Positions 39,762-63,339 of a DNA stretch of 64,000 nucleotides are shown in pieces. Within the stretch, counting starts at the first letter, position 1. Each line of letters begins with the position of its first letter. The stretch is from contig CAKUYE010000002.1 in the NCBI GenBank assembly GCA_934702375.1, positions 16,188 to 80,187 on the forward strand, read 5' to 3'. The position numbers were made by a program, and so were the translations under genes. The notes under the pieces are model-generated. The model was not told the DNA's origin and did no database searches. It worked only from the letters and a program-made list of their open reading frames with translations. This stretch comes from an uncultured Bacillota bacterium (lineage in GTDB: Bacteria > Bacillota > Dehalobacteriia > UBA7702).

Positions 39762-39776
39762 AACACTGCTCCTTTC

Positions 39777-40240: not shown

Positions 40241-40307
40241 TAACCTCCGATTTCATTGGTGTAGCTATATTTTTTTCCAGAAAATGAAAAATATACGTAA
40301 AAAGGGG

Positions 40308-40336
40308 TTGAAATCTCATTTCATCTGTGGTATTAT
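40308..40336 (+). promoter_or_regulatory. Putative sigmaA promoter for tRNA-Cys (TTGAAA-N17-TATTAT)
   Basis: -35 at 40308-40313, -10 at 40331-40336, about 15 nt upstream of the tRNA 5' end. Confidence 0.55.
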
Positions 40337-40350
40337 ATATATCGTGGCGC

Positions 40351-40425
40351 GGCGCCATAGCCAAGTGGGAAGGCAGAGGACTGCAAATCCTTTATTCATC
40401 AGTTCGAATCTGATTGGCGCCTCCA
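40351..40425 (+). tRNA. tRNA-Cys (GCA anticodon), CCA encoded
   Basis: GGCGCCA acceptor stem pairs with TGGCGCC. Anticodon loop CTGCAAA. T-arm GGTTCGAATC-like (AGTTCGAATCTGA). 3'-CCA present. Confidence 0.85.
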
Positions 40426-43989: not shown

Positions 43990-44038
43990 TTTTGTTATTC
44001 TTCATATAAGAAAAGACAGGCTAAATACCTGTCTTAAC

Positions 44039-44674
44039 TCATTCTATAATTTTTACTTTTTCTGGACTATAACGAATATCATAGAAACTAATATCCCAAA
44101 AATCAGGATCAGGTGGTGATACGGTTATGTACAAATTACCTGTTTCCCAAAGCATATCTTTAGATCCATATAAAACACCAGATTCTTTATGATGTTCGCC
44201 AAAAGCATCAACTATTGCATCATAATAGTAATCATACGCATATTTATCATGAGAACAAATCCTTACGTCAATTAATGTATCGTCTGAAAAGGAATAATTC
44301 CTATTGACATCAGCTAGAGATACATCTCCAACGGAAGAATCAATCTTTACATGAAAATATAAATCTTTAGTATAAGCATTTTCCCCTGTTTTTTTGTATT
44401 TGTATTTTTTTTCAACGGTATCATCAATATCGTGTTCTATTATATGCAATGGATTGCAGTTATCGAGTTCAATACCATTCACATCATCATACGACATTCC
44501 AATCTCAACGCCGTTCAACCCAGGAATTTCTTTTGTGTCCCAGTTTGAACCTTGCTCGATATTTTTATTTGTAGTAAAAAACATATAATTGATGTTTTCT
44601 ATGCCAAAAAGTATACCGACACCCAGAATAAGAATCATACAAAATAAAAGTGTTTTCCTAATAGGTTCCGTCAT
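44039..44674 (-). CDS. Hypothetical membrane-anchored protein (AT-rich island)
   Basis: N-terminal TM segment (LLFCMILILGVGILFGI), Asp/Tyr-rich ectodomain. No known domain. Confidence 0.45.
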   Translation of the reverse strand: MTEPIRKTLLFCMILILGVGILFGIENINYMFFTTNKNIEQGSNWDTKEIPGLNGVEIGMSYDDVNGIELDNCNPLHIIEHDIDDTVEKKYKYKKTGENAYTKDLYFHVKIDSSVGDVSLADVNRNYSFSDDTLIDVRICSHDKYAYDYYYDAIVDAFGEHHKESGVLYGSKDMLWETGNLYITVSPPDPDFWDISFYDIRYSPEKVKIIE

Positions 44675-45112
44675 TCCTCCACCTCGCAATCTATTTACTG
44701 CTATGAGTATACCATATTTTGCCAGTGAAGTCAAGAATAATTTGATCTAAATTCAATAATTTGCTTGTTTTTCTTATATGAAAAAGACAGGTCATTTCTG
44801 CCTGCCTCTGCAATTTCGTTGTTAAGTTATATTTGCAGTTCAGACTATACCTTTCGCTGTGAAATTCTAAACACAGCTTATCTGCATATGTCACGCAATT
44901 ACTTACGCAACTGTAGTCGTTAAGGGATTCTCAAATACTAAATTGTATGAATGGTTTTTGAATTTTTTACCGTGTATTTGAGCCTTACCCTCGGTATTGT
45001 CCTCTTCAGGATGTCCACCGATTTGAGCAGATTTAGCGAGAACCATTTCATAATCCTCGTTCAACATGATATCGAAACCGCCATTTCCATCCACGTTGGT
45101 TAGTGCCTTAAT

Positions 45113-45850
45113 TTGTTCTCTAAGGAAGATTTTTATCAGGTACAAGAGTTACTTAAAACACGGAGAAGATCTTGTAAAGATAAAACGGTTAATATATTTT
45201 CCGGATTAGTAAAATGCGCCGATTGCGGAAAGAATATGAACTTAAAAAAGTCTAAAAAAACATATCCAGTGTTTATGTGTGGCGGATCTTTAATCGCAGG
45301 AAAAAAAGAATGTACTTATCACTACACTAGATACGAAGATGTGTATAATTTGGTTCTTAATTCTTTAAATACCTTAATTGAAGGAGTGCAACTAAATAAA
45401 GATAATATTTTAAAGCAAATTATCAGCAGGAACGAAAAAAGTCAGGATAGTAAAATAAAAGAATCAAAAAAACGCTTGCAAGAAATCAATATCAGGCAAG
45501 CGGAAATACAAAAGGTATTTGCAAAACTCTACGAAGATTTAGCCCTTGAAAAAATCCAAGAGGACGTATATATAGGGTTGCAAAACAAATTCTCTAAAGA
45601 GCAAGCTGAACTTAAAAAAGAAGCTAGTGGATTAGAATTGTTTTTACAAGACAACAAGGATGATTCTGATGAAACAAGAGAATGGTTTGACTATATTTCT
45701 TCTTACGAGAAAATAGAAGAGCTTACGCCTAAAATTCTTAGAACTTTTATTGATCGGATTGAAATTCACGAGGCTACTGGCAAAAGAAAAGATCGTGAAC
45801 AGCAAATAGATATTTACTATAAAGTCATTGGCAAAGCTTCAGTACTTTAA
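45113..45850 (+). pseudogene. Large serine recombinase C-terminal fragment (zinc-ribbon plus coiled-coil), N-terminal catalytic domain missing
   Basis: LVKCADCGKNMNLKKSKKTYPVFMCGG recombinase zinc-beta-ribbon, coiled-coil, and terminal DRIEIHE...IDIYYKVIG typical of serine recombinases. No resolvase domain upstream. Confidence 0.65.
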
Positions 45851-48544
45851 GTAACACCATCCCAAGGGGATGTAACGAAAACCAAGGACTTCCCGGTAAC
45901 GGTCTATGCTCAGACCAATGATTCCTTGAAGGAAGGTTACTATCTCACCCAGAGCAAATACCTCAAGAACAGAGCCATCAATGGCTATTGGGCCATTTAC
46001 GCAGCCTATGCTGCTCTCGGTGATTACATTGCCGATCCTGCCAATGGCTATACCTTTATCTTGAGTTCTCCCCAGGCCAACTGGTATGGCGTTCAGTACG
46101 GTGCCACCGTTATGGGCATCTGCGCCATGGGTGGAAATCCCTACAACTACAACGGCGAAAACTGGGTACAGAAACTGTACGATAACTATGGCGGCCCCTA
46201 TGCCGGCGGTCTCTACTCCGCTCTTGGCATGGAAGCAGCCGGTGCCAACAGCACCATGTATACCCCGAAAGGTGATTATCAGGTCAACCAGCTCTCGGAA
46301 TCGAGCATGGCCATGGGTATCGATATCGCCGGTTGGGCTGCCGTTCTGGTTGCAAAACATCATGACTTCCCCGGTTATGAAGAAAGCAATACCGCCGCAT
46401 TGAAAGCATGGCTCAACTATTTGAGAGGGTTAGGCATTGATTCCGATGGTAACTTCGTTGGTTGCAACGATATCTCTACCGGTTGTGCTGTTACCGCTTT
46501 TGCTGCCCTTTACAGCATCGGCATCACTGATGCGGATCCTGCCCTTGATACCTGGAAGAATGCTGCTACAGGCAAAGGCATTATCGATGCCATCTATGAA
46601 CAGGGTCTTGTTCAGGATAAGATTCCCGGCTACATGACTCAGATGGAAATGGCTATCTGTGATATGTACAATGCTAAGTACAATGGCAGCACCTCCACTT
46701 GGATCAAGTGTGGTGTGACCAAAGCAAAATTAGATGCTCAGGTAGCCAAAGCCAATGCCATCTTAGCCGATGAAACCAAGTATGAAGCTTCTTCCATTAA
46801 GGATATCAAAGCTGCAATGGAAAAGGTTAATGCCATTTCCGAAGAACGCTTGAACAACAAGATTGCCGATTACGGCGAAGAATACTACGCATTGTACGAT
46901 GCCGTACGCTATGCTAAATTAGCAGGCCAGAGCGAAATGGATCAGGCTGCTGCCGATAAAGTAACAGAACAGATCAACGCTTTGAACGATGAAATTACCT
47001 TGGCCGATAAAGACGCCGTAGATGCTGCCAAAGCTGCCTACGATGCTCTTACCAACGACCAGAAAGCTCTCATCGCCGAAGATGTTGTTGCAAAACTCAC
47101 TGCCGCAGTTGATACTATCGCCGGTTTGGAACAGGCCGAAGTTGATAAAGAAGCTGCTGCTAACGTAATCAACGAAATCAACAAGATTAACGAAAATGTA
47201 ACCCTCGATGATCAGTCCGCTGTAGCTGCCGCTCGTGCTGCCTACGATGCCTTGACCAAAGAACAGAAAGCTCTCGTAACCAACCTGGATAAACTGACCA
47301 AAGCCGAAGGCACCATCAAGGAACTCCTTGAAAAGGACAACGGCAAGGTCAAGAACATGACCGATGTAATCGAAGGTCAGTGGTACTATAATGATGTTGC
47401 CTATGCTTTGGATAATAATATCTTCAAAGGTACCTCCGATACGACTTTCAGTCCTAATCAGGCTATGACCCGCGCTATGTTCGTTACTGTCCTCGGCCGC
47501 AACGCCGGTGTGGAAGATTCCAGCGCATCTTATCCCTCTACCTCCGTCTTTGACGATGTGGCAAACGATGCCTACTATGCTTCCCATGTAAAATGGGCGG
47601 TAGAAAACGGTATCACTGTAGGGGTAAGCAAAACGGAATTTGCACCCAATGCTCAGATTAGCCGTCAGGATATGGCAACGATGATGCTCCGCTATGCCAA
47701 AGCCATGGGCATCCGGCTGCCGGAAATGAGCAAAGAACTCTTTGCAGATGATGCAGACATCGCAGTATATGCCAAAGAAGCTGTTTATAAACTGAAAGCT
47801 GTAGAAATTATCAACGGCAAAGATGGGAATGTATTCGATCCCAAAGGCAGCACCACCAGAGCGGAAGTCGCTGCGGTGCTCCACCGTTTCCTCACCTACA
47901 AATACGAAGACTTCGTAAAAGTTGATGATACCGACAGCGTTATTGTTGATATCGAAAAATTCACCCTCGGTCAGGGCTTCATTATGGAACCTGTAGTTGT
48001 GAAATGGGAAGAAGGGGACACCGCCGCCGATGTAACGATCCGTGCTGCCGAACAGGCCGGCATCGAGCTGAAATACGGCGATACCGACATGGGCTTCTAC
48101 CTCTCTGCCATTCGTGATAATGAAACGGCAGCCGCCAATATTCCCCAGTACCTAAAGGATGCCGCCGAAGAAAACGGCTTCACCATTGGAGAACGCGCCA
48201 ATGCCGATTGGCTGAGCCAGTTCGACTATACCTCCGAATCCGGCTGGATGATCTGGGTCAATCATGTAGAAATTGATAAATCCGCCGGTGTATGGCCGGT
48301 AACTCCCGGCACCGTGATGCGTTGGCAGTACACCGTGTGCGGCTACGGCCGTGACCTCGGCTCCGGTAGTTTCGACAAACCCTACGTAACCGTAGGCAAT
48401 AAGGACGCTCTCGTTCATGCCATGGCCGTAGCCAGCAAACACGAAAAAGCCGGCAAAGCCTACGAAAATGCTGTAAAGGTGATGGAAAAGATGGATGCGA
48501 CACAAGCAGAAATCGACGCCGCTACGGAAGCGCTAAACGACTGA
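45851..48544 (+). pseudogene. S-layer-homology (SLH) domain cell-surface protein, apparently 5'-truncated
   Basis: Frame is open from directly after the recombinase-fragment stop (45848-50) with no RBS or ATG. First in-frame start is a TTG at 45926. The protein has coiled-coil internal repeats, three SLH domains (e.g. WYYNDVAYALDNNIFKG) and a C-terminal domain. It may still be expressed from an internal start. Confidence 0.6.
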
Positions 48545-48925: not shown

Positions 48926-49943
48926 CCGGTAGAGGAATGGTTTTTATTGTGTTGTGGTTATCGTTGATATGGTAGATTAGGAGTTCGTTGCAGATCTCCA
49001 TATCAATATAATCATCGGTGATGGTGGTTAGCGTTGTTGTTTCTTCGCTATCGGTATCCCAGCGATAGATCGTGGTTTCGATGCGGTTGCCTTCACCATC
49101 GTAGGTGTCGGCAGTGAAATAGAGGGCAATCCCATCGGTATTTATAGTGGAGATCCGTTTTGCATCGTTATAGATCACTTCGAGGTTTTCACCATTCATC
49201 GGTAGGGAGCAAAGCTCATCGTTGGCATTCTCCGTTTCTCCGGCTCTGGTCAGGTAGATCTGATCGTCATTGATCACCATGTTGCCAATCCAGCGGTCGG
49301 CGGTAAAAAGCTTTGTCTTTTCCTTTCCATCCAAGGAGGCACAGTATATGGTATTTTCGCAGATATAGTAAAGCTTGTCTTCGTAAATATTCAGAGAGCG
49401 AATGGGGGTGTTTTCCGTAAGCAGGGTTGCTTCCGTTTGGGCCTTAACATTGATGGCGCCGATCTTGGAACGTTCTTTTTCATTTGTGGTTACATAGATC
49501 AAAAGATCATCGGCGGCGGTAAGGTAGGAAGTGGATTCACCGGCTTTCATGGTATAGATGCTGTTTTGTTCTTGCCCATCCAATCCTACGGAAAAAATGG
49601 CTTCGGTGCGGGTTTCATTACTGTCGTAGGTGATCCCCAAAAAATAGATCGTATCATCCATAACATTTAAAAATTGGATGTATCCGGTAATACCGGTAAG
49701 GGCTTTTTGCGGTTCTCCGTTTTCATCGGCTTCATAGATCAAGTCGTATTCCGTTTCCGTACCGGTGTAGTATAGGGTATGGTCTTTGGCAGCGGCCAAC
49801 CCCAGATTATTGATATTGCTGTCGGTGTTGCCGCGGTCGTTGATGGTGAGATTGCCGGTGGTGCTGCCGCCGCAGGCGCTGAAAAGCAGTCCGGCGGAAA
49901 GGATTAGAGCAAGTACTGCCCCTATTGCGGATCTTTTTTTCAT
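48918..49943 (-). CDS. DUF5050-type beta-propeller lipoprotein
   Basis: Lipoprotein signal MKKRSAIGAVLALILSAGLLFSAC. Repeated ...IYY/LYY... blades. AAGGAG RBS. Confidence 0.7.
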   Translation of the reverse strand: MKKRSAIGAVLALILSAGLLFSACGGSTTGNLTINDRGNTDSNINNLGLAAAKDHTLYYTGTETEYDLIYEADENGEPQKALTGITGYIQFLNVMDDTIYFLGITYDSNETRTEAIFSVGLDGQEQNSIYTMKAGESTSYLTAADDLLIYVTTNEKERSKIGAINVKAQTEATLLTENTPIRSLNIYEDKLYYICENTIYCASLDGKEKTKLFTADRWIGNMVINDDQIYLTRAGETENANDELCSLPMNGENLEVIYNDAKRISTINTDGIALYFTADTYDGEGNRIETTIYRWDTDSEETTTLTTITDDYIDMEICNELLIYHINDNHNTIKTIPLPEA

Positions 49944-50065
49944 TTTTACTCCTTATGTTGGCTTCTGTAAGTGTTGTAGGAAAAGGTATTTTTTACTTCG
50001 ACAGCGGCATGAATATTCCCTTTACGGTATCGGCTTTGGCTTGGAATTTTGGACAAATTCCCCTG

Positions 50066-50094
50066 CTTGACACTGGAAAAAAAAATCGGTATAA
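50066..50094 (+). promoter_or_regulatory. Consensus sigmaA promoter (TTGACA-N17-TATAAT) upstream of the tatB / periplasmic-hydrogenase operon
   Basis: Perfect -35 at 50066-50071, 17-nt spacer, perfect -10 at 50089-50094. About 105-nt leader containing short TTTTCCG repeats and a hairpin. Confidence 0.65.
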
Positions 50095-50199
50095 TGAAAA
50101 CATTATAAGTTAGATTGGATATTTATTTGCAAATTTAAGGAGATTTTCCGTTTTTACGGTAAATTTTCCGTGAGATGCGGGAAAAACAGGAAATTTCAG

Positions 50200-50499
50200 A
50201 TGTTTAATATAAGTTTTGCCGAACTTATCGTTATATTGATTTTGGCATTTGTCATCCTCGGCCCCGATGAAATGGTAAAGGTTGCCCGGTTTTGCGGTCG
50301 TGTGGTGCGTAAGAGCAGACGTTTGCTGTGGCAGATCAAAGAATACGTGAACGATGAAGCCGCAGAAACCGGTCTGGATGAGGTGAAAAAAGCTGCTGAC
50401 GAGGTGAAAACCGCAGCGGCCGAAGCTGATATGCGCAAGGAGCTTACCCGTGGGCCAAAGAAGGCCGCCGAAAAGCCAAAGGACACGGAGGAAAATTGA
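50200..50499 (+). CDS. tatB: TatB-like (TatA/B family) Sec-independent translocase component
   Basis: MFNISFAELIVILILAFVILGPDEMVKVAR, i.e. an N-terminal TM helix plus amphipathic helix typical of TatA/B, with a charged C-terminal tail. Confidence 0.7.
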   Translation: MFNISFAELIVILILAFVILGPDEMVKVARFCGRVVRKSRRLLWQIKEYVNDEAAETGLDEVKKAADEVKTAAAEADMRKELTRGPKKAAEKPKDTEEN

Positions 50500-50515
50500 C
50501 AGCGGAGGTGCTATT

Positions 50516-52135
50516 TTGAAAAAACAGGGAAAACAAAAGAAACAACCAAATCATGAATCACCCAAGCTCACGCGCCGTCAATTTCTCGGTGTTGCTGCCG
50601 GCATCGGTGTCGCAGCGGCGGTTTCCGGCTGTGATATCGTCGATGACCCCGGAGCCGATGGCTGGCTGCCGGAGCAATATCACAATAGTAACGGTTATCC
50701 GGCTCAGGTTCGAGGGAGGGTTCCCATTGATGTGAATAACCCTTCTATTTTACGGGATGATAAAGCCTGCATTCTTTGTGGCCAATGTTTGGAGGTATGT
50801 CAGAATACCGAAACGATCTATAATTATTATGAATTGCCGGTAGTGGATGAATTTATTTGCGTGCATTGTGGCCAGTGTGCCATCAATTGTCCCAGCGGAG
50901 CTATTCGGGAGCGCAGCTATATTGACGAAGTTCGGGAGGCCCTGGCGGATCCCAACAAGGTCGTGGTGGTTGCCACTTCTCCCGGGGTTCGTGTTTCCCT
51001 TGGGGAAGAATTTGGTGCTCCCCAAGGCAAGTGGGTACAGGAGCAAATGATTACCGCTTTGCGGGAACTCGGCTTTGATTACGTGGTGAATATTGACTTC
51101 GCTTCGGATGCCACGATTATGGAAGAAGGAAGCGAGCTGGTACATCGTTTGACCCAGGGAGGTGCACTGCCTCAGTTTACTTCCTGTTGCCCCGGTTGGG
51201 TAAAATTTGTGGAGTATAATTATCCCGATTTGATTCCGAATATTTCCACTGCCAAAAGCCCTGTTGCGGAAATGGGTGCTTTGCTGAAAACATATTGGGC
51301 GAAAAAGAAGAATATTGCGCCTTCGGATATCGTGGTGGTCAATGTACCTCCCTGTACCGCAAAGAAATTTGAATTGAGCCGCCCGGAAATGAATGCCGCC
51401 CAACGTTATTGGGATGAAGAAGGCAAAAGCTACGGAAAAATGCGGGATGTGGATATCGTCCTTTCTACCCGGGAATTAGCGAAAATGATTCGGGATAAGG
51501 GGTTGGATCTCCTGCATTTGCCAAAAGGCAAGTTTGATCCCATCGTCAGTGAAGGCAGCGGCGCTGCGGTGATTTTTGCCAACAACGGCGGTGTTATGGA
51601 AGCCGCTTTGCGTACCGCCTATTATCTTGTCACCAACGAAGATCCGCCGGAATCCTTTTATCATCTGGATATGGTTCGGGATAACGATATGGATGGTTAT
51701 GCCGAAGCCAGTGTGGAGTTCCCCGGTTACGGCACCGTCCGTGTGGCTATATGTAACGGCCTTCATGCTGCCCGTACCCTTTGCGAGGAGATTCGGGCCG
51801 GGAAACGCAATGATCTGCATTTTCTGGAGGTTATGACCTGCCCCGGGGGTTGTATCGGCGGCGGCGGTCAGGCAAAAACCGTGGTTCCGCCATCGGATGT
51901 GCTTCGGGGGCATCGGATTGATTCTCTCTATGCTGCCGATGAAAGTATGGCGAAAGAACAGCGGGTCAGCTATAAAAATAAAGAGATCGCTGCTTTGTAC
52001 GATGATTTTCTCGGAAAGCCCTTGAGTGAGTTGGCAGAGAAAATCCTTCATACCACCTATACCGACCGCAGCGGTTCTATCCACACCAAGGATACTTCTG
52101 ATTATGTGGATGTTTGTATCCGTGGAAAATCCTGA
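50516..52135 (+). CDS. Tat-exported [FeFe]-hydrogenase (two ferredoxin-like 4Fe-4S clusters, H-cluster domain and a small-subunit-like C-terminal extension)
   Basis: TTG start with GGAGG RBS. Twin-arginine signal KLTRRQFLGVAAGIGVAAAVSGC. Clusters CILCGQCLEVCQ and CVHCGQCAINCP. H-cluster motifs TSCCPGW, PPCTAKKFE, VMTCPGGCIGGGG. Confidence 0.85.
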   Translation: MKKQGKQKKQPNHESPKLTRRQFLGVAAGIGVAAAVSGCDIVDDPGADGWLPEQYHNSNGYPAQVRGRVPIDVNNPSILRDDKACILCGQCLEVCQNTETIYNYYELPVVDEFICVHCGQCAINCPSGAIRERSYIDEVREALADPNKVVVVATSPGVRVSLGEEFGAPQGKWVQEQMITALRELGFDYVVNIDFASDATIMEEGSELVHRLTQGGALPQFTSCCPGWVKFVEYNYPDLIPNISTAKSPVAEMGALLKTYWAKKKNIAPSDIVVVNVPPCTAKKFELSRPEMNAAQRYWDEEGKSYGKMRDVDIVLSTRELAKMIRDKGLDLLHLPKGKFDPIVSEGSGAAVIFANNGGVMEAALRTAYYLVTNEDPPESFYHLDMVRDNDMDGYAEASVEFPGYGTVRVAICNGLHAARTLCEEIRAGKRNDLHFLEVMTCPGGCIGGGGQAKTVVPPSDVLRGHRIDSLYAADESMAKEQRVSYKNKEIAALYDDFLGKPLSELAEKILHTTYTDRSGSIHTKDTSDYVDVCIRGKS

Positions 52136-52155
52136 AGAAAGGGGAGACAAATGGA

Positions 52156-52947
52156 ATGAAAAACAGCGCTGTATTGTTTGATGTGACCAAATGCGTTGGC
52201 TGCGGCAGCTGCACCGTTGCCTGTAAGCTTTGGAATGGTCTCTCCTTTGAAGAGGGCAACGCCCATGGCTACGATGTGGAATTAAATGAAAATAACTGGA
52301 CGGTGGTAGAGTACCATTCTTTGGAAGATAAGGATGGGAAAAAGCTGCGGTTTTTGAAACAGCAGTGTATGCATTGTTTGGAGCCCAGCTGTGTTGCGGT
52401 TTGTTTTGCCAAGGCCATCCGAGTGGCGGAAAGCGGAGCTGTGGTTTACGATGCCAAAAAGTGTGTTGGCTGCCGCTATTGCATGATCGGCTGTCCTTAT
52501 GATGTACCGAAATACGAGTGGGATAAGGTGTTCCCCTCGGTGATGAAATGTCGGCTTTGCGCCGATAAGCTGGAACGAAATGAATCTCCGGCCTGTGTTT
52601 CCACTTGTCCTTCGGGAGCGCTGACCTTTGGAGATCGTGACGAGCTTTTGCAGAAGGCAAAAACAATGATTGCCGGTGATAAAAAATACATCAATTATGT
52701 CTATGGTGAAAAGGAGGGCGGCGGTACCCGCTGGCTTTATATCTCCGATGTTCCCTTTGAGGAACTGGGGCTGCCGGTGAATATTACAAAACGCTCCATT
52801 CCTTCGATGGTTCATGATTATACCAAGTGGAAACCGGGCGTTTTTGCCGGAGCTGCTGCGGTTTTTGGTGCTTTGGGGTTGTATACCCATCGCCGATTAA
52901 AGGTGGAAGCCGCCCAAAGGGAAGAGGAGGATAGCGCCGATGTTTGA
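52156..52947 (+). CDS. HybA/PsrB/NrfC-like 4x[4Fe-4S] ferredoxin subunit with a C-terminal TM anchor
   Basis: Four Cys clusters (CVGCGSCTVAC, CMHCLEPSCVAVC, CVGCRYCMIGCP, CRLC...CVSTCP). C-terminal hydrophobic helix (VFAGAAAVFGALGLY). GGGGAG RBS. Confidence 0.8.
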   Translation: MKNSAVLFDVTKCVGCGSCTVACKLWNGLSFEEGNAHGYDVELNENNWTVVEYHSLEDKDGKKLRFLKQQCMHCLEPSCVAVCFAKAIRVAESGAVVYDAKKCVGCRYCMIGCPYDVPKYEWDKVFPSVMKCRLCADKLERNESPACVSTCPSGALTFGDRDELLQKAKTMIAGDKKYINYVYGEKEGGGTRWLYISDVPFEELGLPVNITKRSIPSMVHDYTKWKPGVFAGAAAVFGALGLYTHRRLKVEAAQREEEDSADV

Positions 52948-54103
52948 TTATAACCTGCGTCTGAACAAAAAAACGACGCTCCGCTTTACTTTTGGCCGCT
53001 TGTGTCTTTTGGCTTTGGGTGGCATTGGTCTTTTGCTGATGGTCTATCGGTTGGTCAACGGCCTTGGCGCCGCAACAAATCTTTCGGATTCCTGGACGTG
53101 GGGGCTGTGGATTTATTTTGATATGATTCTCAGTGCTTTGGGTTCCTGCGGTTTTGCGGTGGGGATTCTTACTCATGTGCTTCATATCCCCAAGTATCAA
53201 CCGTTGGCTCGTCGGGCATTGCTGGTGTCCTTTTTCTGTTATCTTTTGCTTTTTCTGATTCTCTTTGCCGAGATTGGTCGCTGGGATAACTTTTACTGGA
53301 TCTTTATTTCCTTTGCCTGGTCCTCTCCTCTGTATGAGGTTTTTATCTGCTTGACGCTGTACTTTTTGGTGCAGATTGCCGAGATCGAAGAAATTTGGGT
53401 GGAACGGTACTTGCCTTTGCCCTGGCTGCAAATGATATTGAAGTATCTGATGCCCTGTGTATTTTTGGTTGCCTGTATTTTACCCTTTGGTCAGGAAGCT
53501 GCTTTGGGTGGGATTTATCTTGCCATGCCCAATAAGCTCCATACCATCTGGTATTCCCAAGCCTTGCCCTGGAATTGTTTGATTTCCGCATTTTACGGCG
53601 GACTTTGCTTTATTGCCTTGGAATACTATGGCTCCAATCGCTATTTTCGGGAAAAATCCGATACCGGAATGATCTCCTCGCTGCTTCGCATAGCCGGTGT
53701 GGTGATCGGTGTCAATCTTGTGGTTAAAATCGTTGATCTTTCGGTACGAGGTGCATGGAGCGCTGTTTTTTCCGGGCAGTATGAAAGTGTGATGTTCATT
53801 GGCGAGATCGTCGTTGGTTCTCTGATCCCTCTGCTGATACTGCTTACCCCCTTGAGAAAGGGAAAGAAAGGGCAGATTCTGGCAGCTCTTTGTGGTGTGA
53901 TCGGGATCTTATGGAATCGCTTTAATTTCATTTTTACCGGTATGGCTCGTCATGCAGGGGAAAGTTATTTCCCTTCCTTTGTGGAGTGGGGGATCGTGAT
54001 TGGGCTGATGGCCTTAATGGTGGTCATTTATATCTTTCTTGTAGAGAATCTGCCGGTGCATCGCAATAAGGACGATGAAAAACCGGAAATCGTGATTCGC
54101 TGA
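52940..54103 (+). CDS. NrfD/PsrC/HybB-family integral membrane quinone-interacting subunit
   Basis: 387 aa, about 8-10 TM helices, NrfD-like topology. Overlaps the stop of the ferredoxin subunit. Confidence 0.75.
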   Translation: MFDYNLRLNKKTTLRFTFGRLCLLALGGIGLLLMVYRLVNGLGAATNLSDSWTWGLWIYFDMILSALGSCGFAVGILTHVLHIPKYQPLARRALLVSFFCYLLLFLILFAEIGRWDNFYWIFISFAWSSPLYEVFICLTLYFLVQIAEIEEIWVERYLPLPWLQMILKYLMPCVFLVACILPFGQEAALGGIYLAMPNKLHTIWYSQALPWNCLISAFYGGLCFIALEYYGSNRYFREKSDTGMISSLLRIAGVVIGVNLVVKIVDLSVRGAWSAVFSGQYESVMFIGEIVVGSLIPLLILLTPLRKGKKGQILAALCGVIGILWNRFNFIFTGMARHAGESYFPSFVEWGIVIGLMALMVVIYIFLVENLPVHRNKDDEKPEIVIR

Positions 54104-54134
54104 TGGTTTGCATAAATTCCTAGGAGGTATTGAT

Positions 54135-54344
54135 ATGAGATTGGGTATATGGGAAATTCTCCTGATTATTGTTTTGGCGCTGATCCTTTTCGGCGGTAAA
54201 AAGCTTTCCGGTGTGGGAAAGTCTCTGGGAAAAGGGATTCGGGAGTTTAAAGAAGAAATCCATGCCGATGATGAAAAGGATGCCGGGTCGCCCAAACCCG
54301 AAGCCGCCAAAGCCGAAGATGATGACAAAGCTTCGAAGGAATAA
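54135..54344 (+). CDS. tatA: TatA (Sec-independent translocase)
   Basis: MRLGIWEILLIIVLALILFGGKKLSGVGKSLGKGIREFK, the canonical TatA N-terminus. GGAGGT RBS. The ORF track starts at an upstream in-frame ATG. Confidence 0.85.
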   Translation: MRLGIWEILLIIVLALILFGGKKLSGVGKSLGKGIREFKEEIHADDEKDAGSPKPEAAKAEDDDKASKE

Positions 54345-55073
54345 GTGGTGACGCCCTTGGATAGCGAAGTAAAACAGGCTTTTTTCGAGCACATTGCGGA
54401 GCTGCGAAAGACGTTGATTCTCTGCATTGTGACGATCCTTGCCTTTTTCATTCTTATTTTCTGCGTTTTTCAAGATACGCTGATGGATTTTTTCCTTTCC
54501 GGTGTACGCAGCATTGGTTTGGAGGTCGTTTATACGACGGTAGGCGAGGTTTGGACCACGAAGATGAAAGTTGCCTTTATGGCGGCTCTGGTGGTTTCCT
54601 TTCCCTTTACAGCTTTTTTTCTTTGGCGGTTTCTGGCCCCGGCGCTGTACCCCGGAGAAAAGAAGATTTTCAGCCTCTGCTTTTTTGCTGCGGTGTTCTT
54701 ATTTGCCCTCGGGGTTGCCTTTGCATATTTTGTGGTACTGCCCTTTACCTTGCGCTTTTTCGTAGCCTTTGGTGAAGGCACAGCCACCGCTATGCTCACC
54801 GTGAGTAAATACGTTAGTTTCCTGATCGGCTTTATTGTACCCTTTGGCTTGATTTTTCTGATGCCCCTCTGTGTGTATCTTTTAACAAAGCTTGGTATTC
54901 TTACCCCGGATGTATTAGTGCGCACCCGTCGTTATGTCCTGATCCTGCTTCTCATCGTTGCCGCGATCCTGACGCCGCCGGATGTAGTCTCACAGCTGAT
55001 GCTGTTTTTCCCAATGATGGGGTTGTGGGAGGTTGGCATCTTAATTTCCAAACGCACCTTTCGGCGGCGCTAA
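54345..55073 (+). CDS. tatC: TatC
   Basis: GTG start. 242 aa, 6 TM helices. TatC signature (FEHIAELRKTLILCIVTILAFFI...). Confidence 0.85.
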   Translation: MVTPLDSEVKQAFFEHIAELRKTLILCIVTILAFFILIFCVFQDTLMDFFLSGVRSIGLEVVYTTVGEVWTTKMKVAFMAALVVSFPFTAFFLWRFLAPALYPGEKKIFSLCFFAAVFLFALGVAFAYFVVLPFTLRFFVAFGEGTATAMLTVSKYVSFLIGFIVPFGLIFLMPLCVYLLTKLGILTPDVLVRTRRYVLILLLIVAAILTPPDVVSQLMLFFPMMGLWEVGILISKRTFRRR

Positions 55074-55482
55074 ACGTCTTTTCTTCGGCAAAATCTATCC
55101 ATGCCGGCCATCCGGATACGTTTTAGTATACCGGCTGACCGTCCTGAAAAGCTTTTACCGAATAAAAGCCGTTTATCGCCGCCTTTCCGGCTCTGCTTAA
55201 ACGGTTTTTCTTCGGCAAAATCTATCCATGCCGGCCATCCGGATACGTCTAGGTATACCGGCTGACCGTCCTGAAAAGCTTTTACCGAATAAAAGCCGTT
55301 TATCGCCGCCTTCCCGGCTCTGCTTAAACGGTTTTTCTTCGGCAAAATCATCTCGTGTCGGCCATCCGGATACGTTTTAGTATACCGGCTGACCGCCCCG
55401 AAATGCTTTTGCCGAATAAAAGCCGTTTATCGCCGCCTTTCCGGCTCTGCTTAAACGCTTTTCCTCGGCAAAATCTATCATA
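55074..55482. repeat. Tandem repeat of about 3.2 copies of a 127-bp unit
   Basis: Units begin at 55074, 55201, 55328 and a partial one at 55455. Each has hairpin-prone segments (CCGGATAC-gtttta-GTATACCGG; GCCGTTTA...TAAACGG plus T-run). Motifs ttcggcaaaatc and ttttaccga resemble the 36-kb repeat family. Confidence 0.8.
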
Positions 55483-55525
55483 ATAAAGCAATTAGCCGCC
55501 TTGGTTTTTTACCTTGGCGGCCATT

Positions 55526-56248
55526 TTAGTGGTTGTTTTCTTTTCTCGTGTGGGATTGGATCCATTCCTGTACCTCGGCTTTTTTGCTTTGGCTGATCGG
55601 CAGCTTGATATTTTCGGCAAGGAAAATGTGGCTTGGTGTTACGGCTTCAATGTATCGGCAGTTTACCGCAATGGAATTGTGGATTCGCAGAAAAGGAAGG
55701 TCTTTGACGGAATCCAATAATTCACTTATCTTACCGTAAAAAATTTGGGTTTCGGTTTTTGTGTGGATATGGATGTGTCTTCCTTTGCTTTCGATATACA
55801 AAACATCTTTTGCGGTGACACGCCGAAGTTCTCGACCGGAACGAAAGGCAAAATGATTGTCGAAGCGGTGAATTAGCGTATTGCAGATAGGAAGAATTTC
55901 ATTGATATTTTTCTGTGAAATGGGTTTGATTAGAAAGTGCAGGGGGTGCATCTCAAAGAAAGGCATTACGTCGATGAGTTCTTTGGACATATAGACGATT
56001 TGAACAATATGATTTTTCTGCTCTTTACGAATATAATGGCTGATTTCCAGACCACGGTTCTCCGGAAGGGATACTTCCAGAAAAATCAAATCATACTGTT
56101 CCTCGGCCAAAGCCTGTCGCAAACCGGTTTCGGTGTAAAAAATTTCGATTGTCTCTTGAATCTGCTCTGTATGAGCCGTTTTGGTGATTTTTTCCTTTAA
56201 GTCCTGGCAGGTCATTTCATCGTCGTCACAAATAGCAATTCGAAGCAT
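55526..56248 (-). CDS. LytTR-family response regulator (AgrA/ComE/LytR-like), with no cognate kinase in the window
   Basis: Receiver domain (MLRIAICDDDE...) plus C-terminal LytTR DNA-binding domain (LYIESKGRHIHIHTKTETQIFYGKISEL). AGGAGA RBS. Confidence 0.85.
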   Translation of the reverse strand: MLRIAICDDDEMTCQDLKEKITKTAHTEQIQETIEIFYTETGLRQALAEEQYDLIFLEVSLPENRGLEISHYIRKEQKNHIVQIVYMSKELIDVMPFFEMHPLHFLIKPISQKNINEILPICNTLIHRFDNHFAFRSGRELRRVTAKDVLYIESKGRHIHIHTKTETQIFYGKISELLDSVKDLPFLRIHNSIAVNCRYIEAVTPSHIFLAENIKLPISQSKKAEVQEWIQSHTRKENNH

Positions 56249-57608: not shown

Positions 57609-57734
57609 TGCTTTATTCCGGCTGCAATATCATGCAGTCGGAATTTCTTTATGGCATTTCAAGAAAAATGTCGCGAATTTATTGTACTTATGGTAAAATA
57701 GAAGAAGAATGACATGGATCAGGAGGCTCTTTTT

Positions 57735-60368
57735 ATGGCAGAGCAGGTGGAAAAAAACTTAAAAAAGCGTATCGTTCTGGGGCTTTTGGCCCATGTGGAT
57801 GCCGGTAAAACCACCCTTTCCGAAGGGCTTCTTTATCTTTCCGGTCAAATCAAAAAGGTGGGGCGAGTCGATCACGGAGATTGTTTTCTTGATACCCATG
57901 CTTTGGAGCGGGCCAGAGGAATCACCATTTTTTCCAAGCAGGCAAGGTTTTCTCTGGGTGATACGGAGATTACTCTTTTGGATACTCCGGGTCACGTTGA
58001 TTTTTCCACGGAAACCGAGCGCACCCTGAGTGTGTTGGACTATGCTGTTCTCGTTATCAGCGGCACCGACGGTGTCCAAGCCCACACCGAAACTCTTTGG
58101 CGGTTGCTGCGGAAATATCATATTCCCACTTTCTTTTTTATCAGCAAATGCGACCTCGCCCATGCCGATGGGAATAGGACTTTGGCAGAGCTGAAAGATC
58201 GGCTTTCTTCGGCCTGTATAGATCTCTCTCATGGCTTTGATCCCGAAGAGATCGCTCTTTGTGATGAAGCTTTGTTGGAGCGTTATTTCCGTACCGATAC
58301 CGTTACGGATCGTGATATTGCGGCATTGATTCGAGAGGAAAAGCTCTTCCCCTGCTTCTTTGGTTCCGGCTTGAAGTTGGAAGGGATGGAACCCCTGCTT
58401 TATGCTTTGGAGCATTATACCTTGATGCCCTCTTATTCCGAGGATTTTGGAGCGATGGTCTACAAGATCGACCGGGACGAAAAAGGAAATCGTCTTACTT
58501 ATATGAAAATCACCGGCGGCACTTTAAAGGTGCGCATGCCGGTATCTTACCTTTCTTCCCATACCCGGGAGGAGACCACGGAAAAAGTCAGCCAGCTACG
58601 GCTCTATGCCGGAGAAAAGTACAGTACCGCCGACGGAGTTTATCCCGGTACTGTCTGCGCTGTCCTGGGATTTTCGGAAACGGCTCCGGGGATGGGTTTG
58701 GGTGCTGCGGCAAACGGTGTTCCGCCGTTGTTGGAGGCCGTATTGAATTACCGCGTTGTTTTGCCTGAGGATATCGACCCCGCCGGATTTTTACCTAAGC
58801 TGCGGCTCTTGGAAGAGGAAGACCCGGCTCTTCATGTGGTATGGCAGGAATCTCTTGGAGAAATCCACCTGCGATTGATGGGAGAAGTGCAGATTGACGT
58901 TATCAAAAATCTTATTGCGGAGCGGTTTGGTGTCTCTGTGGATATTGCCGATGGCAGGATCCTTTATAAAGAAACCATCAAAGAGCCGGTGGTGGGCATT
59001 GGCCATTTTGAGCCTCTGCGCCATTATGCCGAAGTGCATTTGCTCCTGGAACCTTTGGCACCGGGCAGCGGTATTGTTTTTGACAGTAAATGTAGCGAAG
59101 ATCTTCTGGATCGTAACTGGCAAAGACTGATTCTGGGACAGTTGGCATCTCATGAGCTTATCGGTGTTCTTACCGGTTCACCTTTGACGGATCTGCGGAT
59201 CACTCTGGTGGCAGGGCGCGCCCATTTGAAACATACCGAAGGCGGCGATTTCCGTCAGGCGGCGATCCGTGCTTTGCGTCACGGACTGATGCAGGCAGAA
59301 AGTGTTCTTCTGGAACCGTATTATCACTTTGCACTGGAGCTTCCCGGGGAGTATCTGGGCCGTGGAATCCATGATATTCAGGCGATGAACGGCACCTTTG
59401 GTGCTCCTGAGGAAATTGGTGAAATGATGCTTCTCAAAGGCACGGCTCCGGTGGCTGCCATGGCCAATTACCAGACAGAGGTTTTGGCTTATACTCATGG
59501 CAAGGGGCGGCTCCGTCGGGAAATCTGCGGCTATGCTCCCTGTAAAAATGCGGCTGCCATCATCGAAACCGCCGGATATGATCCGGAGCACGATCCGGAT
59601 AATCCTGCTTTTTCCGTTTTTTGTGCCCACGGTGGCGGTTTTAACGTGCCTTGGCAGGATGTCCGGGAGTATGCTCACGTGGATAGCGGAGTAAAAACCT
59701 CTCCCGATGCCATGCCTACGCTGCCCAACCCCAAAGTTTTTGCCCGTAATCTGAATATAGACGATAAAGAACTGGAAGCGATTATGGAGCGGGAGTTTGG
59801 CCCCATCAAACGCCGCCAATATAAAAAAACGGTGGCCGATGATCGTTTTCATTCCGGTAAAAAGGTAGAGATCAAAAAAGATTATCTTATTGTAGATGGT
59901 TACAATATGATTTTTTCCTGGGAGGGATTAAAGGAGCTGGTTGATACCGATGATATGGATCTTGCCCGGCATCGCCTTATCGAATTGCTCAGTCATTATC
60001 AGGCCTTTGTTCGTTGTGAATTGGTCTGCGTTTTCGATGGATATAAAATCAAAGGAAATCCCGGAGACCACCAAACCGTTGACGGTATTCATGTGGTTTA
60101 TACTAAGGAAGGGGAGACGGCGGATCGCTATATTGAGACCTTATTAAAGGAGATCGGCAGTCACTATAATGTGCGGATTGCCACTTCCGATGCTTTGATC
60201 CAGCTTTCCGCCGTTAGCAGCGGTGTTTTGCGCATGACTGCTGGGGAACTGGAGGAGGAAATCTCCGGGGTTCAGAAAAAGTTGGCGCTATTGGTGGAGG
60301 AGCTGAACCGTAAAAATGAAAAGCTGAGAAATCGGCTGGATCTGACGGAGAAAAACGAAGGAAGATAA
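57735..60368 (+). CDS. Translational GTPase (TetM/TetO/EF-G-like, domains I-V) fused to a C-terminal YacP/Rae1-type NYN ribonuclease domain
   Basis: G1 AHVDAGKTTL, G2 RGITI, G3 DTPGH, G4 SKCD. The C-terminal ~180 aa (LIVDGYNMIF...VCVFDGY...VVYTKEGETADRYIE...VRIATSD) aligns with the B. subtilis YacP (Rae1) NYN domain. CAGGAGG RBS before ATG 57735. Confidence 0.8.
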   Translation: MAEQVEKNLKKRIVLGLLAHVDAGKTTLSEGLLYLSGQIKKVGRVDHGDCFLDTHALERARGITIFSKQARFSLGDTEITLLDTPGHVDFSTETERTLSVLDYAVLVISGTDGVQAHTETLWRLLRKYHIPTFFFISKCDLAHADGNRTLAELKDRLSSACIDLSHGFDPEEIALCDEALLERYFRTDTVTDRDIAALIREEKLFPCFFGSGLKLEGMEPLLYALEHYTLMPSYSEDFGAMVYKIDRDEKGNRLTYMKITGGTLKVRMPVSYLSSHTREETTEKVSQLRLYAGEKYSTADGVYPGTVCAVLGFSETAPGMGLGAAANGVPPLLEAVLNYRVVLPEDIDPAGFLPKLRLLEEEDPALHVVWQESLGEIHLRLMGEVQIDVIKNLIAERFGVSVDIADGRILYKETIKEPVVGIGHFEPLRHYAEVHLLLEPLAPGSGIVFDSKCSEDLLDRNWQRLILGQLASHELIGVLTGSPLTDLRITLVAGRAHLKHTEGGDFRQAAIRALRHGLMQAESVLLEPYYHFALELPGEYLGRGIHDIQAMNGTFGAPEEIGEMMLLKGTAPVAAMANYQTEVLAYTHGKGRLRREICGYAPCKNAAAIIETAGYDPEHDPDNPAFSVFCAHGGGFNVPWQDVREYAHVDSGVKTSPDAMPTLPNPKVFARNLNIDDKELEAIMEREFGPIKRRQYKKTVADDRFHSGKKVEIKKDYLIVDGYNMIFSWEGLKELVDTDDMDLARHRLIELLSHYQAFVRCELVCVFDGYKIKGNPGDHQTVDGIHVVYTKEGETADRYIETLLKEIGSHYNVRIATSDALIQLSAVSSGVLRMTAGELEEEISGVQKKLALLVEELNRKNEKLRNRLDLTEKNEGR

Positions 60369-61926: not shown

Positions 61927-63339
61927 ATGATGATGTCTAGAGAACAGATGATCCACAACGCAGCAATGGAAGTATTAAACGAAGTCGGGGTAAAAATTCA
62001 CAATAAAAAAGCTTGTGAAATTTATCGGGAAAATGGCATCCGTGTAGAAAACGATACTGTGTTTTTTACCGAGGAGCAGGTAATGCATTGGGTGAAAATG
62101 GCACCTTCGGAGTTTACTCTTTACGGACGGAATCCGAAATATGACATGGTGATCGGCGGTGATCATGTGAATCCTGCCCCCACCTACGGCTGTGCTTTTA
62201 TTGATGATTGGGAAGGCAACCGCCGTCGGGGCTCAATTCAGGACTATTTGAAATGCTTAAAGCTGGTTCATGCCGAAGATACCTATGATATCAATGGCGG
62301 AATCATGATCCAGCCCAGTGACATTCCCGAAGAAACCGCGGCACTGGCTATGTTTTATGCAATGCTGAAAACAACGGATAAGGTCATGATGCTTCCCACC
62401 GGTTTTAAAGATGAAATGGCGCTGATTTTAGAAGCAGGTGCTGCTATTTTCGGCGGAAAAGAAGCCATGATTGAAAAACCACGGATGATTGCCTTGATCA
62501 ATACGGTATCCCCCTTATCCCTTGATGAAAGAATGCTTGATTGTCTTATGCTCTTGGCTGAATATGGCCAGCCTGCCATTCTTTGCCCTGCTGCCATGCT
62601 TGGCGCTACCGGTTCTCTCTCCATGGCCGGAACCCTTGTCACCGGCATTGCCGAAGATCTTGCCGGCATTGCCCTTGCGCAAATGGTGCGCCCCGGCACA
62701 CCTGTTGTTCTTGGCATTCAGTCCACAGCGGCAGATATGCGCGGTGGTATTACCTTTGCTTGCGCTGCTCCGGAAGGTACTTTGATGCAGGGCTTTGCTG
62801 CGAATATGGCTAAATTCTACGGCGTCCCTTCTCGTGGCGGCGGTTGTCAGACCGATGCTCCTGTTATCAACTGCCAGGCCGGTTATGAATCGATGCTTAC
62901 CTTTTCCTCGGCTTATCGTCACGGTATCAACCTGGTAATGGAAGCCGGCGGTGTTATGGATAGCGTTAACGCTACTTCCTTTGAGAAAATGATCATCGAC
63001 TTTGAAATCATTCGTCAGGTGAAAAAAGCATTTACTCCCATTGAAGTAACGGAAGAAACCTTGAATTTGAAGGAAATCAAAGAAGTGAATTCCACCGGCA
63101 GCTATGTTATGACCGATTACACCATGTTCCATTTCAATGATCTCTATGCACCGAAAATCGGTTCCCGCAGTGCCAAAGGAGATGCTTACTTCAAGGAAAG
63201 CATTGATAAAGAAATGGATCGCCTGTTGACAGTATACGAACAAAATCGTCCCCAGGAAGCCGAAGCAATGGCAGAAGCCAGAGCAATCATCGCCAAATCC
63301 GGTATGGATATGGACAAATTAGATGCGGAAATGGAATAA
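61927..63339 (+). CDS. Trimethylamine methyltransferase (MttB) superfamily protein, non-pyrrolysine type (quaternary-amine:corrinoid methyltransferase-like)
   Basis: 470 aa. N-terminal motif (MSREQMIHNAAMEVLNEVGVKIHN) and length typical of MttB/MtgB-family proteins. No in-frame amber codon. Three consecutive ATGs leave the start ambiguous. Confidence 0.75.
   Translation: MMMSREQMIHNAAMEVLNEVGVKIHNKKACEIYRENGIRVENDTVFFTEEQVMHWVKMAPSEFTLYGRNPKYDMVIGGDHVNPAPTYGCAFIDDWEGNRRRGSIQDYLKCLKLVHAEDTYDINGGIMIQPSDIPEETAALAMFYAMLKTTDKVMMLPTGFKDEMALILEAGAAIFGGKEAMIEKPRMIALINTVSPLSLDERMLDCLMLLAEYGQPAILCPAAMLGATGSLSMAGTLVTGIAEDLAGIALAQMVRPGTPVVLGIQSTAADMRGGITFACAAPEGTLMQGFAANMAKFYGVPSRGGGCQTDAPVINCQAGYESMLTFSSAYRHGINLVMEAGGVMDSVNATSFEKMIIDFEIIRQVKKAFTPIEVTEETLNLKEIKEVNSTGSYVMTDYTMFHFNDLYAPKIGSRSAKGDAYFKESIDKEMDRLLTVYEQNRPQEAEAMAEARAIIAKSGMDMDKLDAEME

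Follow-up and report, generated by a model that had tools for sequence, protein, structure and literature searches.

Membrane-bound [FeFe] hydrogenases that face outward and are linked to quinone have been invoked for H2 uptake in Gram-positive sulfate reducers and for uphill H2 release in syntrophic fatty-acid oxidation. Enzymes of this type have been on record in genome papers since about 2012, and, judged by its gene order and motifs, one of them is encoded in the DNA analyzed here, a 64-kb stretch (the window; contig CAKUYE010000002.1) from an uncultured gut/rumen Firmicute. Positions 50067–55073 of its plus strand hold a real, intact six-gene operon for a membrane-bound [FeFe] hydrogenase plus genes of the twin-arginine translocation (Tat) pathway. 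The 2012 genome paper of Desulfotomaculum ruminis described two "membrane-associated" [FeFe] hydrogenases carrying a Tat signal and proposed, via SignalP 4, an uncleaved signal anchor for the catalytic subunit (PMC3569383); the 2014 D. nigrificans paper described the complex as extracellular, with a membrane subunit of 10 transmembrane helices "orthologous to cytochrome b" (PMC4149029). These Desulfotomaculum-type loci (Desru_3431-3433; Desca_0940-0938 of D. nigrificans/carboxydivorans) share with the window locus the three-gene order, the Tat motif, an iron-sulfur (FeS) subunit and a 10-helix membrane subunit, and a predicted extracellular orientation (PMC3569383; PMC4149029). They differ from it in several respects: the identity of the catalytic subunit, HydA, is only ~50%, adjacent tat genes are mostly missing whereas those of the window clade bracket the module, and the position equivalent to His184 of HybB, the membrane subunit of Escherichia coli hydrogenase-2, is occupied by His rather than by the Gln of the window clade. 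The published descriptions also have a cytochrome b and an uncleaved anchor, whereas the window locus has a heme-less subunit of the NrfD/HybB type and a conserved lipobox.

In Syntrophomonas wolfei, Hyd2ABC (Swol_1925-1927) was described as externally oriented and menaquinone-linked through a b-type cytochrome (PMC3582634); it gave in-gel activity in membranes, and hyd2ABC was ~20-fold up under syntrophic butyrate growth (PMC5101538). It is the sole such enzyme for which we found activity-stain, proteomic, and expression data. According to its published descriptions it resembles the window enzyme in being a three-subunit, membrane-bound, outward-facing [FeFe] hydrogenase and differs in its physiology, which is syntrophic H2 production, and in having a membrane subunit termed a b-type cytochrome; for Swol_1927 our literature search turned up no annotation. 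An earlier note on the window had stated that Tat-exported, quinone-linked [FeFe] architectures were known from comparative genomics and had not been characterized biochemically. The two Desulfotomaculum papers bear out the first statement, and the second is roughly right but has to be qualified for S. wolfei Hyd2ABC (PMC5101538; PMC3582634); our literature search found no report of such a complex having been purified or structurally solved. Thermacetogenium phaeum Tph_c06350-70, considered as biochemical support on account of a quinone-dependent membrane hydrogenase activity (PMC6895022), was dropped because the genome paper describes a periplasmic [NiFeSe] enzyme.

The window locus also compares with three systems of other kinds. 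Hydrogenase-2 of E. coli (HybOCAB), a group-2 [NiFe] H2:menaquinone oxidoreductase, has a homologous electron-transfer and anchor module, the proton-path residues of which are largely kept in the window, and it is Tat-exported and outward-facing with a tail-anchored FeS protein, as is predicted for the window enzyme. It differs in having the [NiFe] HybOC pair instead of a single-chain [FeFe] HydA, in that HybA has its own Tat signal and the window ferredoxin none, and in its hyb maturation genes, which are absent at the window locus. The periplasmic [FeFe] hydrogenase of Desulfovibrio is a soluble enzyme of two chains that bears its signal on the small subunit and reduces cytochrome c3. With this HydAB the window enzyme would share Tat export, membership of group A, an F-domain with two [4Fe-4S] clusters, and a small-subunit element; it differs in that this element is fused at the C-terminus, the signal is N-terminal on the single chain, and the membrane partners are HybAB-like. 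In Bacillus subtilis, the Tat translocase genes tatAd and tatCd adjoin, and are presumably coexpressed with, the gene of a particular substrate, PhoD. The window Tat genes likewise adjoin a substrate gene and are presumably coexpressed with it, the differences being two TatA-family paralogs (one TatB-like) besides TatC and a substrate that is a multicofactor redox complex.

Measured against these precedents, what is new here is modest: a family-wide lipobox, a signal-less and probably tail-anchored ferredoxin, an assignment of the membrane subunit to the HybB type together with its proton-path residues, a clade-specific change of His184 to Gln, and a TatB-like paralog. These added features leave the picture of what the enzyme is unchanged. 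The locus is a compact, self-contained example of the type, in which one predicted strong promoter precedes both the three structural genes and a complete Tat set; the 5-kb locus could serve as a convenient cassette for heterologous expression.

The Operon and Its Catalytic Subunit

Six open reading frames (ORFs), all codirectional and tightly packed, were found where the earlier note had placed an operon, in the order tatB-like gene, hydA, HybA-like ferredoxin gene, HybB/NrfD-type membrane subunit gene, tatA, and tatC (Table 1). The promoter that the note had called perfect does match TTGACA-N17-TATAAT at every consensus position; this sequence occurs only once in the window and never in 100 shuffles. 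The other sequence readings of the note, namely a twin-arginine signal and H-cluster motifs in HydA, a relationship of the ORF at 52940 to NrfD, and HybA- and HybB-like partners, agree with what we describe below, and each of the four Pfam families it named (Fe_hyd_lg_C, Fe_hyd_SSU, Fer4_11, and NrfD) was matched. Gene content, motifs, homology, and conservation, as given in this and the following sections, are observations.

HydA matches Pfam Fe_hyd_lg_C (3e-83) and Fe_hyd_SSU (1e-16) and passes the NCBIfam model for group-A [FeFe] hydrogenases, TIGR02512, with 438.6 bits against a cut-off of 405.95. Its matches in the Protein Data Bank (PDB) include HydA1 of a HydABC complex (7q4v, 6e-109), the large-small fusion chain of the Desulfovibrio periplasmic hydrogenase (8ryh, residues 80–524, 3e-101), and CpI (4xdc, 2e-90). 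The chain is laid out as a Tat/lipoprotein signal, a family-specific linker, a domain for two [4Fe-4S] clusters with two CxxCxxCxxxC motifs, the H-domain, and a fused small-subunit-like C-terminus. Group A was recognized by the H-domain patterns TSCCPxW, MPCxxKxxE, and ExMxCxxGCxxGxGQ; the H-cluster motifs of the window protein, TSCCPGW at residue 222, PCTAKKFE at 279, and EVMTCPGGCIGGGGQ at 438, are intact, and by these motifs and the profile models HydA is a group-A [FeFe] hydrogenase.

The N-terminus of HydA (TRRQFLGVAAGIGVAAAV) carries TRRQFL at residues 19–24 with a hydrophobic stretch after it, in agreement with the N-terminal S/T-R-R-x-F-L-K consensus plus hydrophobic stretch by which Tat signals were recognized. 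Of the 120 homologs among the matches listed (50–99% identity), 117 have the RR motif, and in an alignment of 37 sequences (49–83% identity) R20, R21, G38, and C39 are invariant. The last two of these residues close a lipobox, V-S-G-C at residues 36–39, which fits the pattern [LVI][ASTVI][GAS]C; in 116 of 118 RR-bearing homologs a [GAS]-C pair sits 19–23 residues past the RR, mostly as L[SAT]GC, the forms being LSGC, LAGC, LTGC, MTGC, and VSGC. Because the signal ends in an invariant lipobox, we read HydA as probably a Tat-exported lipoprotein, which would be cleaved at the lipobox and lipidated at Cys39. A literature search found no paper that joins lipobox, Tat, and [FeFe] hydrogenase.

Two further features of the HydA family were observed. 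The first H-cluster motif, canonical in the window protein, reads TSCSPGW instead of TSCCPGW in 36 of the 120 listed homologs, mostly of the Desulfotomaculum/Pelotomaculum type, and the solved HydA1 chain 7q4v_A also carries this variant; across the 37-sequence alignment the first Cys of the motif is invariant and the second is variable. A linker of ~40 residues (HydA residues 40–80; window 50633–50755) connects the lipobox to the first FeS motif and contains invariant W50, P52, Q54, Y55, G67, and R68 (GWLPxQY...VRGRVPID). It is without counterpart in solved hydrogenases, the alignments of which begin at about residue 67–80, and may be where the ferredoxin or the membrane subunit docks.

The Ferredoxin and Membrane Subunits

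The FeS subunit matches Pfam Fer4_11 (5.6e-23) and FdnH (PDB 1kqf_B, 2e-40), and its 16 Cys residues form four [4Fe-4S] motifs (positions 13, 16, 19, 23, 71, 74, 79, 83, 103, 106, 109, 113, 132, 135, 147, and 151). Its alignment with E. coli HybA, at 36% identity, opens at HybA residue 39, HybA having ~38 additional N-terminal residues. No signal peptide was found in the window ferredoxin, and an RR motif is present in none of the 72 family members; the first Cys motif begins at residue 13 in the window protein and at residues 10–21 in all 72 relatives. At the other end, a hydrophobic helix (GVFAGAAAVFGALGLYT) is followed by HRRLK, and a C-terminal helix with a basic tail is found throughout the family. 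Because no relative's ferredoxin has a signal of its own, the protein is probably exported bound to HydA, and its C-terminus suggests that it ends up tail-anchored.

The membrane subunit passes the Pfam NrfD model (64.4 bits, cut-off 25.8), aligns with E. coli HybB at 29% identity and almost end to end (E = 6e-37), and has ten hydrophobic segments on a topology check. A single-sequence search of the PDB with this protein found nothing; solved NrfD-type subunits were reached only by a family profile, which hit 6f0k_C at 1.5e-7, and by a fold search. The AlphaFold2 model used for the latter (pLDDT 87, pTM 0.88) had as its top matches the ten-helix ActC of alternative complex III (template modeling score 0.73, E = 1e-10), and the NrfD fold, defined as two four-helix bundles within 8–10 transmembrane helices, was assigned. 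There is no fully conserved His column in the 71-member family: the best column has His in 66 of 71 members and Gln in the window protein. Because no His is conserved throughout the family, the model and the alignment identify the subunit as a heme-less protein of the HybB/NrfD type; the NrfD fold and the absence of a conserved His pair led us to reject a true cytochrome b as the anchor.

The residues ascribed to the quinone site and proton channel of HybB have been listed, and replacing R89, Y99, E148, or His184 impairs H2 oxidation (PMC8076601). The equivalents of HybB D58, S129, E133, R89, S95, Y99, Y141, E148, E155, E291, and R329 are kept in at least 87% of the 71 members, and all of them are present in the window protein, where the putative quinone site corresponds to D61, S129, and E133 and the path residues include R91, Y101, and E148. 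Public annotations of the homologs vary between "polysulfide reductase NrfD," "HybB-like protein," and "Ni/Fe-hydrogenase cytochrome b subunit"; this mixture would explain the "cytochrome b" label, which looks like a legacy from HybB. The HybB-type assignment corrects that label in several genome papers, and a 2026 preprint corrects it for the FdnG-HybAB formate dehydrogenases of Pelotomaculum (bioRxiv 10.64898/2026.06.25.734252). A 2021 review of NrfD-type complexes mentions neither an [FeFe] hydrogenase nor a lipoprotein nature (PMC8076601). The earlier note had expected an NrfD-type anchor to be unusual in this role; it is instead the rule for the family, since hydA is followed by a ferredoxin gene and an NrfD-type gene in 71–74 of 84 loci.

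Relatives of the Operon and Linkage to Tat Genes

The closest HydA sequences (99% identity) are on short metagenome contigs of the European Nucleotide Archive (ENA). A 77% relative on a 2.65-Mb ENA contig (locus L001 of our comparison set) has the same six-gene order and partly shared flanking genes, and when each species is represented by a single genome, a rumen metagenome-assembled genome (MAG; 76%) ranks first and Peptococcaceae UBA7702 (69%) second. Relatives at ~50% identity occur in Pelotomaculum, Desulfotruncus, Desulforamulus, Desulfosporosinus, Desulfitobacterium, Holophaga, Desulfobulbus, Syntrophorhabdus, termite-gut Planctomycetes, and Selenomonadaceae, and HydA is 50–54% identical to that of Desulfoscipio, Desulforamulus, Desulfotruncus, and Pelotomaculum loci with the same partners. 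The hydA-FeS-NrfD module is kept in ~70 species of several phyla; the loci without the full order comprise contigs that are truncated and four paralogs that are more distant and have no signal. One Peptococcaceae MAG (L019, 3629–15542) carries three consecutive pairs of HybA-like and NrfD-like genes, just one of them behind a hydA. This arrangement fits the view that different catalytic subunits share the HybAB-like module, a reuse reported for FdnG-HybAB (bioRxiv 10.64898/2026.06.25.734252).

The downstream Tat genes are readily identified: tatA scores 55.4 bits against TIGR01411 (cut-off 53.9), matches Pfam TatA_B_E (2e-16), and has a TatA-type LFGxKKL motif, and tatC matches Pfam TatC (4e-58) and scores 169.8 bits against TIGR00945 (cut-off 132.7). 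The first gene of the operon, which the earlier note had called tatB, has TIGR01410 tatB as its top NCBIfam match (6.9e-13) with 48.9 bits, below the cut-off of 56.5, and falls just under the cut-off of Pfam TatA_B_E. Aligned to E. coli TatB, it has the common N-terminus MF-I-F-EL...LGP with Glu8 and the Leu-Gly-Pro hinge, and orthologs stand at the matching position in loci L001, L004, L006, and L007.

Of 83 loci searched with profile hidden Markov models, 16 have tatC and 18 a tatA/B gene within 7 kb. The bracket tatB...tatA-tatC is confined to the window's gut/rumen clade and one Joint Genome Institute contig (L004); in the Desulfoscipio/Desulfotruncus group tatA-tatC lies directly upstream of the module, and in Anaerovibrio a divergent tatAC lies ~4 kb upstream. 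As judged from these loci, the Tat linkage is recurrent and far above chance but does not define the family. The "private Tat system" of the earlier note, drawn by analogy to TatAd/TatCd-PhoD, is therefore a fair comparison but a trait of some clades only. In Desulfoscipio gibsoniae (CP003273.1; L002, 1443–5736), hydG, hydE, hydF, and a TM1266-like gene stand just upstream of tatA-tatC-hydA-FeS-NrfD, which by gene content is a complete island for maturation, export, and enzyme.

Proposed Mechanism and Alternatives

We consider it likely that the operon encodes a three-subunit, outward-facing, membrane-bound [FeFe] hydrogenase with its own TatA, TatB-like, and TatC machinery, expressed from one strong promoter. 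HydA would fold in the cytoplasm, where it would take up two [4Fe-4S] clusters and an H-cluster from HydEFG encoded elsewhere, and would bind the signal-less four-cluster ferredoxin, the folded pair crossing the membrane via Tat on HydA's TRRQFL signal. The signal would be cut at the lipobox and Cys39 lipidated, the C-terminal helix of the ferredoxin would span the membrane with its basic tail inside, and HydA and ferredoxin would dock on the 10-helix HybB-type NrfD protein. Electrons from H2 would then pass from the H-cluster through two FeS clusters in HydA and four in the ferredoxin, reaching quinone at a site close to the outer face of the membrane subunit, and the protons of the quinol would be taken from the cytoplasm via the conserved Arg/Tyr/Glu path. 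In this direction H2 oxidation would build a proton-motive force, as proposed for E. coli hydrogenase-2; in reverse, and as has been suggested for Hyd2 of S. wolfei, menaquinol would be oxidized and H2 formed at the expense of that force. A wider proposal is that the whole family consists of Tat-dependent lipoprotein [FeFe] hydrogenases that carry across a ferredoxin that is signal-less and tail-anchored and, joined to a heme-less HybB-type subunit, act as reversible, proton-motive-force-coupled H2:menaquinone oxidoreductases, counterparts of hydrogenase-2, with proton coupling perhaps altered or lost in the window clade; we put this forward tentatively and think it rather unlikely to hold in every part.

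Several points weigh against the outward-facing, quinone-linked enzyme. Export, lipidation, quinone coupling, proton coupling, and the physiological direction are all steps that we infer. Genes for menaquinone biosynthesis, for a terminal reductase, and for HydEFG are absent from the window; the extracytoplasmic quinone-linked hydrogenase of the earlier note is a reasonable prediction. NrfD-like subunits are also present in quinone-free Dehalococcoides, as outlined in PMC10772276. Both partner subunits score below the equivalog cut-offs of their NCBIfam models, a further difference from hydrogenase-2: the membrane subunit reaches 195.9 bits (1.5e-57) against HybB, with a cut-off of 450, and the FeS subunit 220.3 bits (3e-65) against HybA, with a cut-off of 263, and 245.8 bits (5e-73) against HmcB, with a cut-off of 420. 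By these models the FeS subunit is a relative, and no equivalog, of HybA/HmcB. Last, the His184 equivalent of HybB, His in 66 of 71 members, is Gln185 in exactly five members, those of the window clade, and Ser186 and Ser187 are replaced by Ala alongside it; the patch reads GQEAA there (membrane subunit residues 183–189; also in L001, L005, L006, and L007) and LHQSS in the 66 relatives and E. coli. With this patch changed, proton coupling in the window clade may differ or be lost.

The same complex could have H2 production as its job, with menaquinol reoxidized, H2 released outside, and the proton-motive force spent in reverse electron transport. By analogy this is a possibility to be taken seriously, although we lean the other way. 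It draws on the induction of S. wolfei hyd2ABC in syntrophic growth and the activity of the enzyme in membrane gels (PMC5101538) and on a second hydrogenase of the window, a cytoplasmic HydABC at 27806–31283 (NuoE-like protein, 165 aa; NuoF-like protein, 418 aa; HydA, 574 aa). The earlier note had described this enzyme as NADH/ferredoxin-linked; it is real, but the description is doubtful, HydB being only 418 aa long and having FMN and NADH-4Fe4S domains only. In length it resembles HydB1 (407 aa) of S. wolfei Hyd1ABC, which is ferredoxin-independent and NADH-dependent, rather than the ~600-aa HydB of bifurcating enzymes, and on this analogy the organism and S. wolfei have the same two types of hydrogenase. 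HybB-type modules of Pelotomaculum have also been argued to spend proton-motive force for H2 or formate (bioRxiv 10.64898/2026.06.25.734252). However, there is no sign of syntrophic fatty-acid oxidation in the window, the likeness to S. wolfei Hyd2 comes from published descriptions, and Desulfotomaculum-type sulfate reducers with the same enzyme are expected to take up H2 (PMC3569383; PMC4149029). The enzyme is probably reversible, hence the choice between H2 uptake and H2 release is a question of physiology rather than of mechanism.

A complex that is exported and membrane-bound but not linked to quinone, its NrfD-like subunit serving only as an anchor or proton path and its electrons passing to some other extracytoplasmic or membrane partner, appears improbable. 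Such a complex would be consistent with the lack of quinone genes in the window and with the altered His184/Ser186/Ser187 patch, and the organohalide-respiration complex of Dehalococcoides would be its quinone-free precedent, again as outlined in PMC10772276. However, the window protein retains the residues of the putative quinone site (D58, S129, and E133 in HybB numbering) and of the channel (R89, Y99, Y141, and E148), the operon holds no gene for an alternative acceptor, and a 64-kb span is too small to prove quinone synthesis missing. That the RR motif is vestigial and the enzyme sits on the inner face of the membrane is hardly credible, even though some cytoplasmic redox enzymes, such as E. 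coli NarG, retain remnant Tat-like N-termini. Throughout a deep family there is no variation in the full S/T-R-R-x-F-L motif, in the hydrophobic stretch, or in the lipobox Cys; tatABC genes share the operon with hydA, the basic tail past the C-terminal helix of the ferredoxin fits an N-out, C-in topology, and HybB-type complexes carry their peripheral subunits outside (PMC8076601).

Layout of the Operon

Start codons were placed by ribosome-binding sites and by alignment with relatives (Table 1). The intergenic gaps are, in operon order, 16, 20, −8, 31, and 0 nt, and a promoter/terminator scan found no convincing intrinsic terminator inside the operon. With small gaps, one promoter, and no convincing internal terminator, the six genes likely share a single transcript. 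An Rfam search of 49900–55700 found no leader and no riboswitch. Long antisense ORFs within hydA and the FeS gene (e.g., 51476–52666, minus strand) were set aside as shadow ORFs, lying wholly inside well-supported genes.

Table 1. Features of the hydrogenase operon, in window coordinates
Feature	Coordinates	Strand	Remarks
Putative sigma-70-type promoter, TTGACA-17 nt-TATAAT	50067..50095	+	12/12 consensus; ~105 nt upstream of tatB-like start
tatB-like gene, 99 aa	50200..50499	+	ATG start; second TatA-family paralog, Glu8 and Gly-Pro hinge
hydA, group-A [FeFe] hydrogenase catalytic subunit, 539 aa	50516..52135	+	TTG start, GGAGGT upstream
Predicted HydA signal peptide region	50516..50632	+	Basic n-region, TRRQFL, hydrophobic stretch, lipobox
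HybA/HmcB-like ferredoxin (FeS subunit), 263 aa	52156..52947	+	ATG start; 16 Cys, four cluster motifs
HybB-type NrfD-family integral membrane subunit, 387 aa	52940..54103	+	ATG start; 10 predicted transmembrane helices
tatA, 69 aa	54135..54344	+	ATG start, GGAGG upstream; TatA-type Phe-Gly hinge
tatC, 242 aa	54345..55073	+	GTG start abuts tatA stop codon

A tandem repeat follows the operon at 55071–55479, from the stop codon of tatC to before a convergent gene for a LytTR response regulator. It consists of 3.2 copies of a 127-bp unit with 92% matches, and each unit is predicted to fold as an imperfect hairpin of ~105 nt (−40.3 kcal/mol, z = −4.6). The unit has no Rfam match and was found neither elsewhere in the window nor in 86 related loci; candidate roles are those of a terminator or mRNA stabilizer or of a small mobile palindromic element.

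Neighborhood of the Operon

Downstream of the operon, and shared with the 77% relative, are two genes of other functions. At 57714–60368 (L001 19560–21614) an 884-aa protein is encoded in which an EF-G-like GTPase, complete with GTP_EFTU, EFG_III, EFG_IV, and EFG_C, is fused, at its C-terminal end, with a YacP-like NYN nuclease domain. A few kilobases downstream of the operon, at 61927–63339 (L001 17936–19357), a gene for an MttB-family (trimethylamine-type) methyltransferase hints at methylated-amine or betaine metabolism in the lineage.

A low-GC patch (0.34) at 44000–46000 contains a truncated serine-recombinase-like ORF (Zn_ribbon_recom and DUF4368, 45113–45850), and two Schlafen AlbA_2/HATPase_c_4 proteins are encoded at 14153–15592 and 32536–33891; the recombinase-like ORF and the Schlafen proteins are possible remnants of mobile or defense elements. 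The window further encodes YpeB and an adjacent SleB-like cell-wall hydrolase, both of spore germination, and a large SLH-domain protein (38409–40364 and 45926–48544). Given the spore-germination genes and SLH domains, this Firmicute probably forms spores and bears an S-layer.

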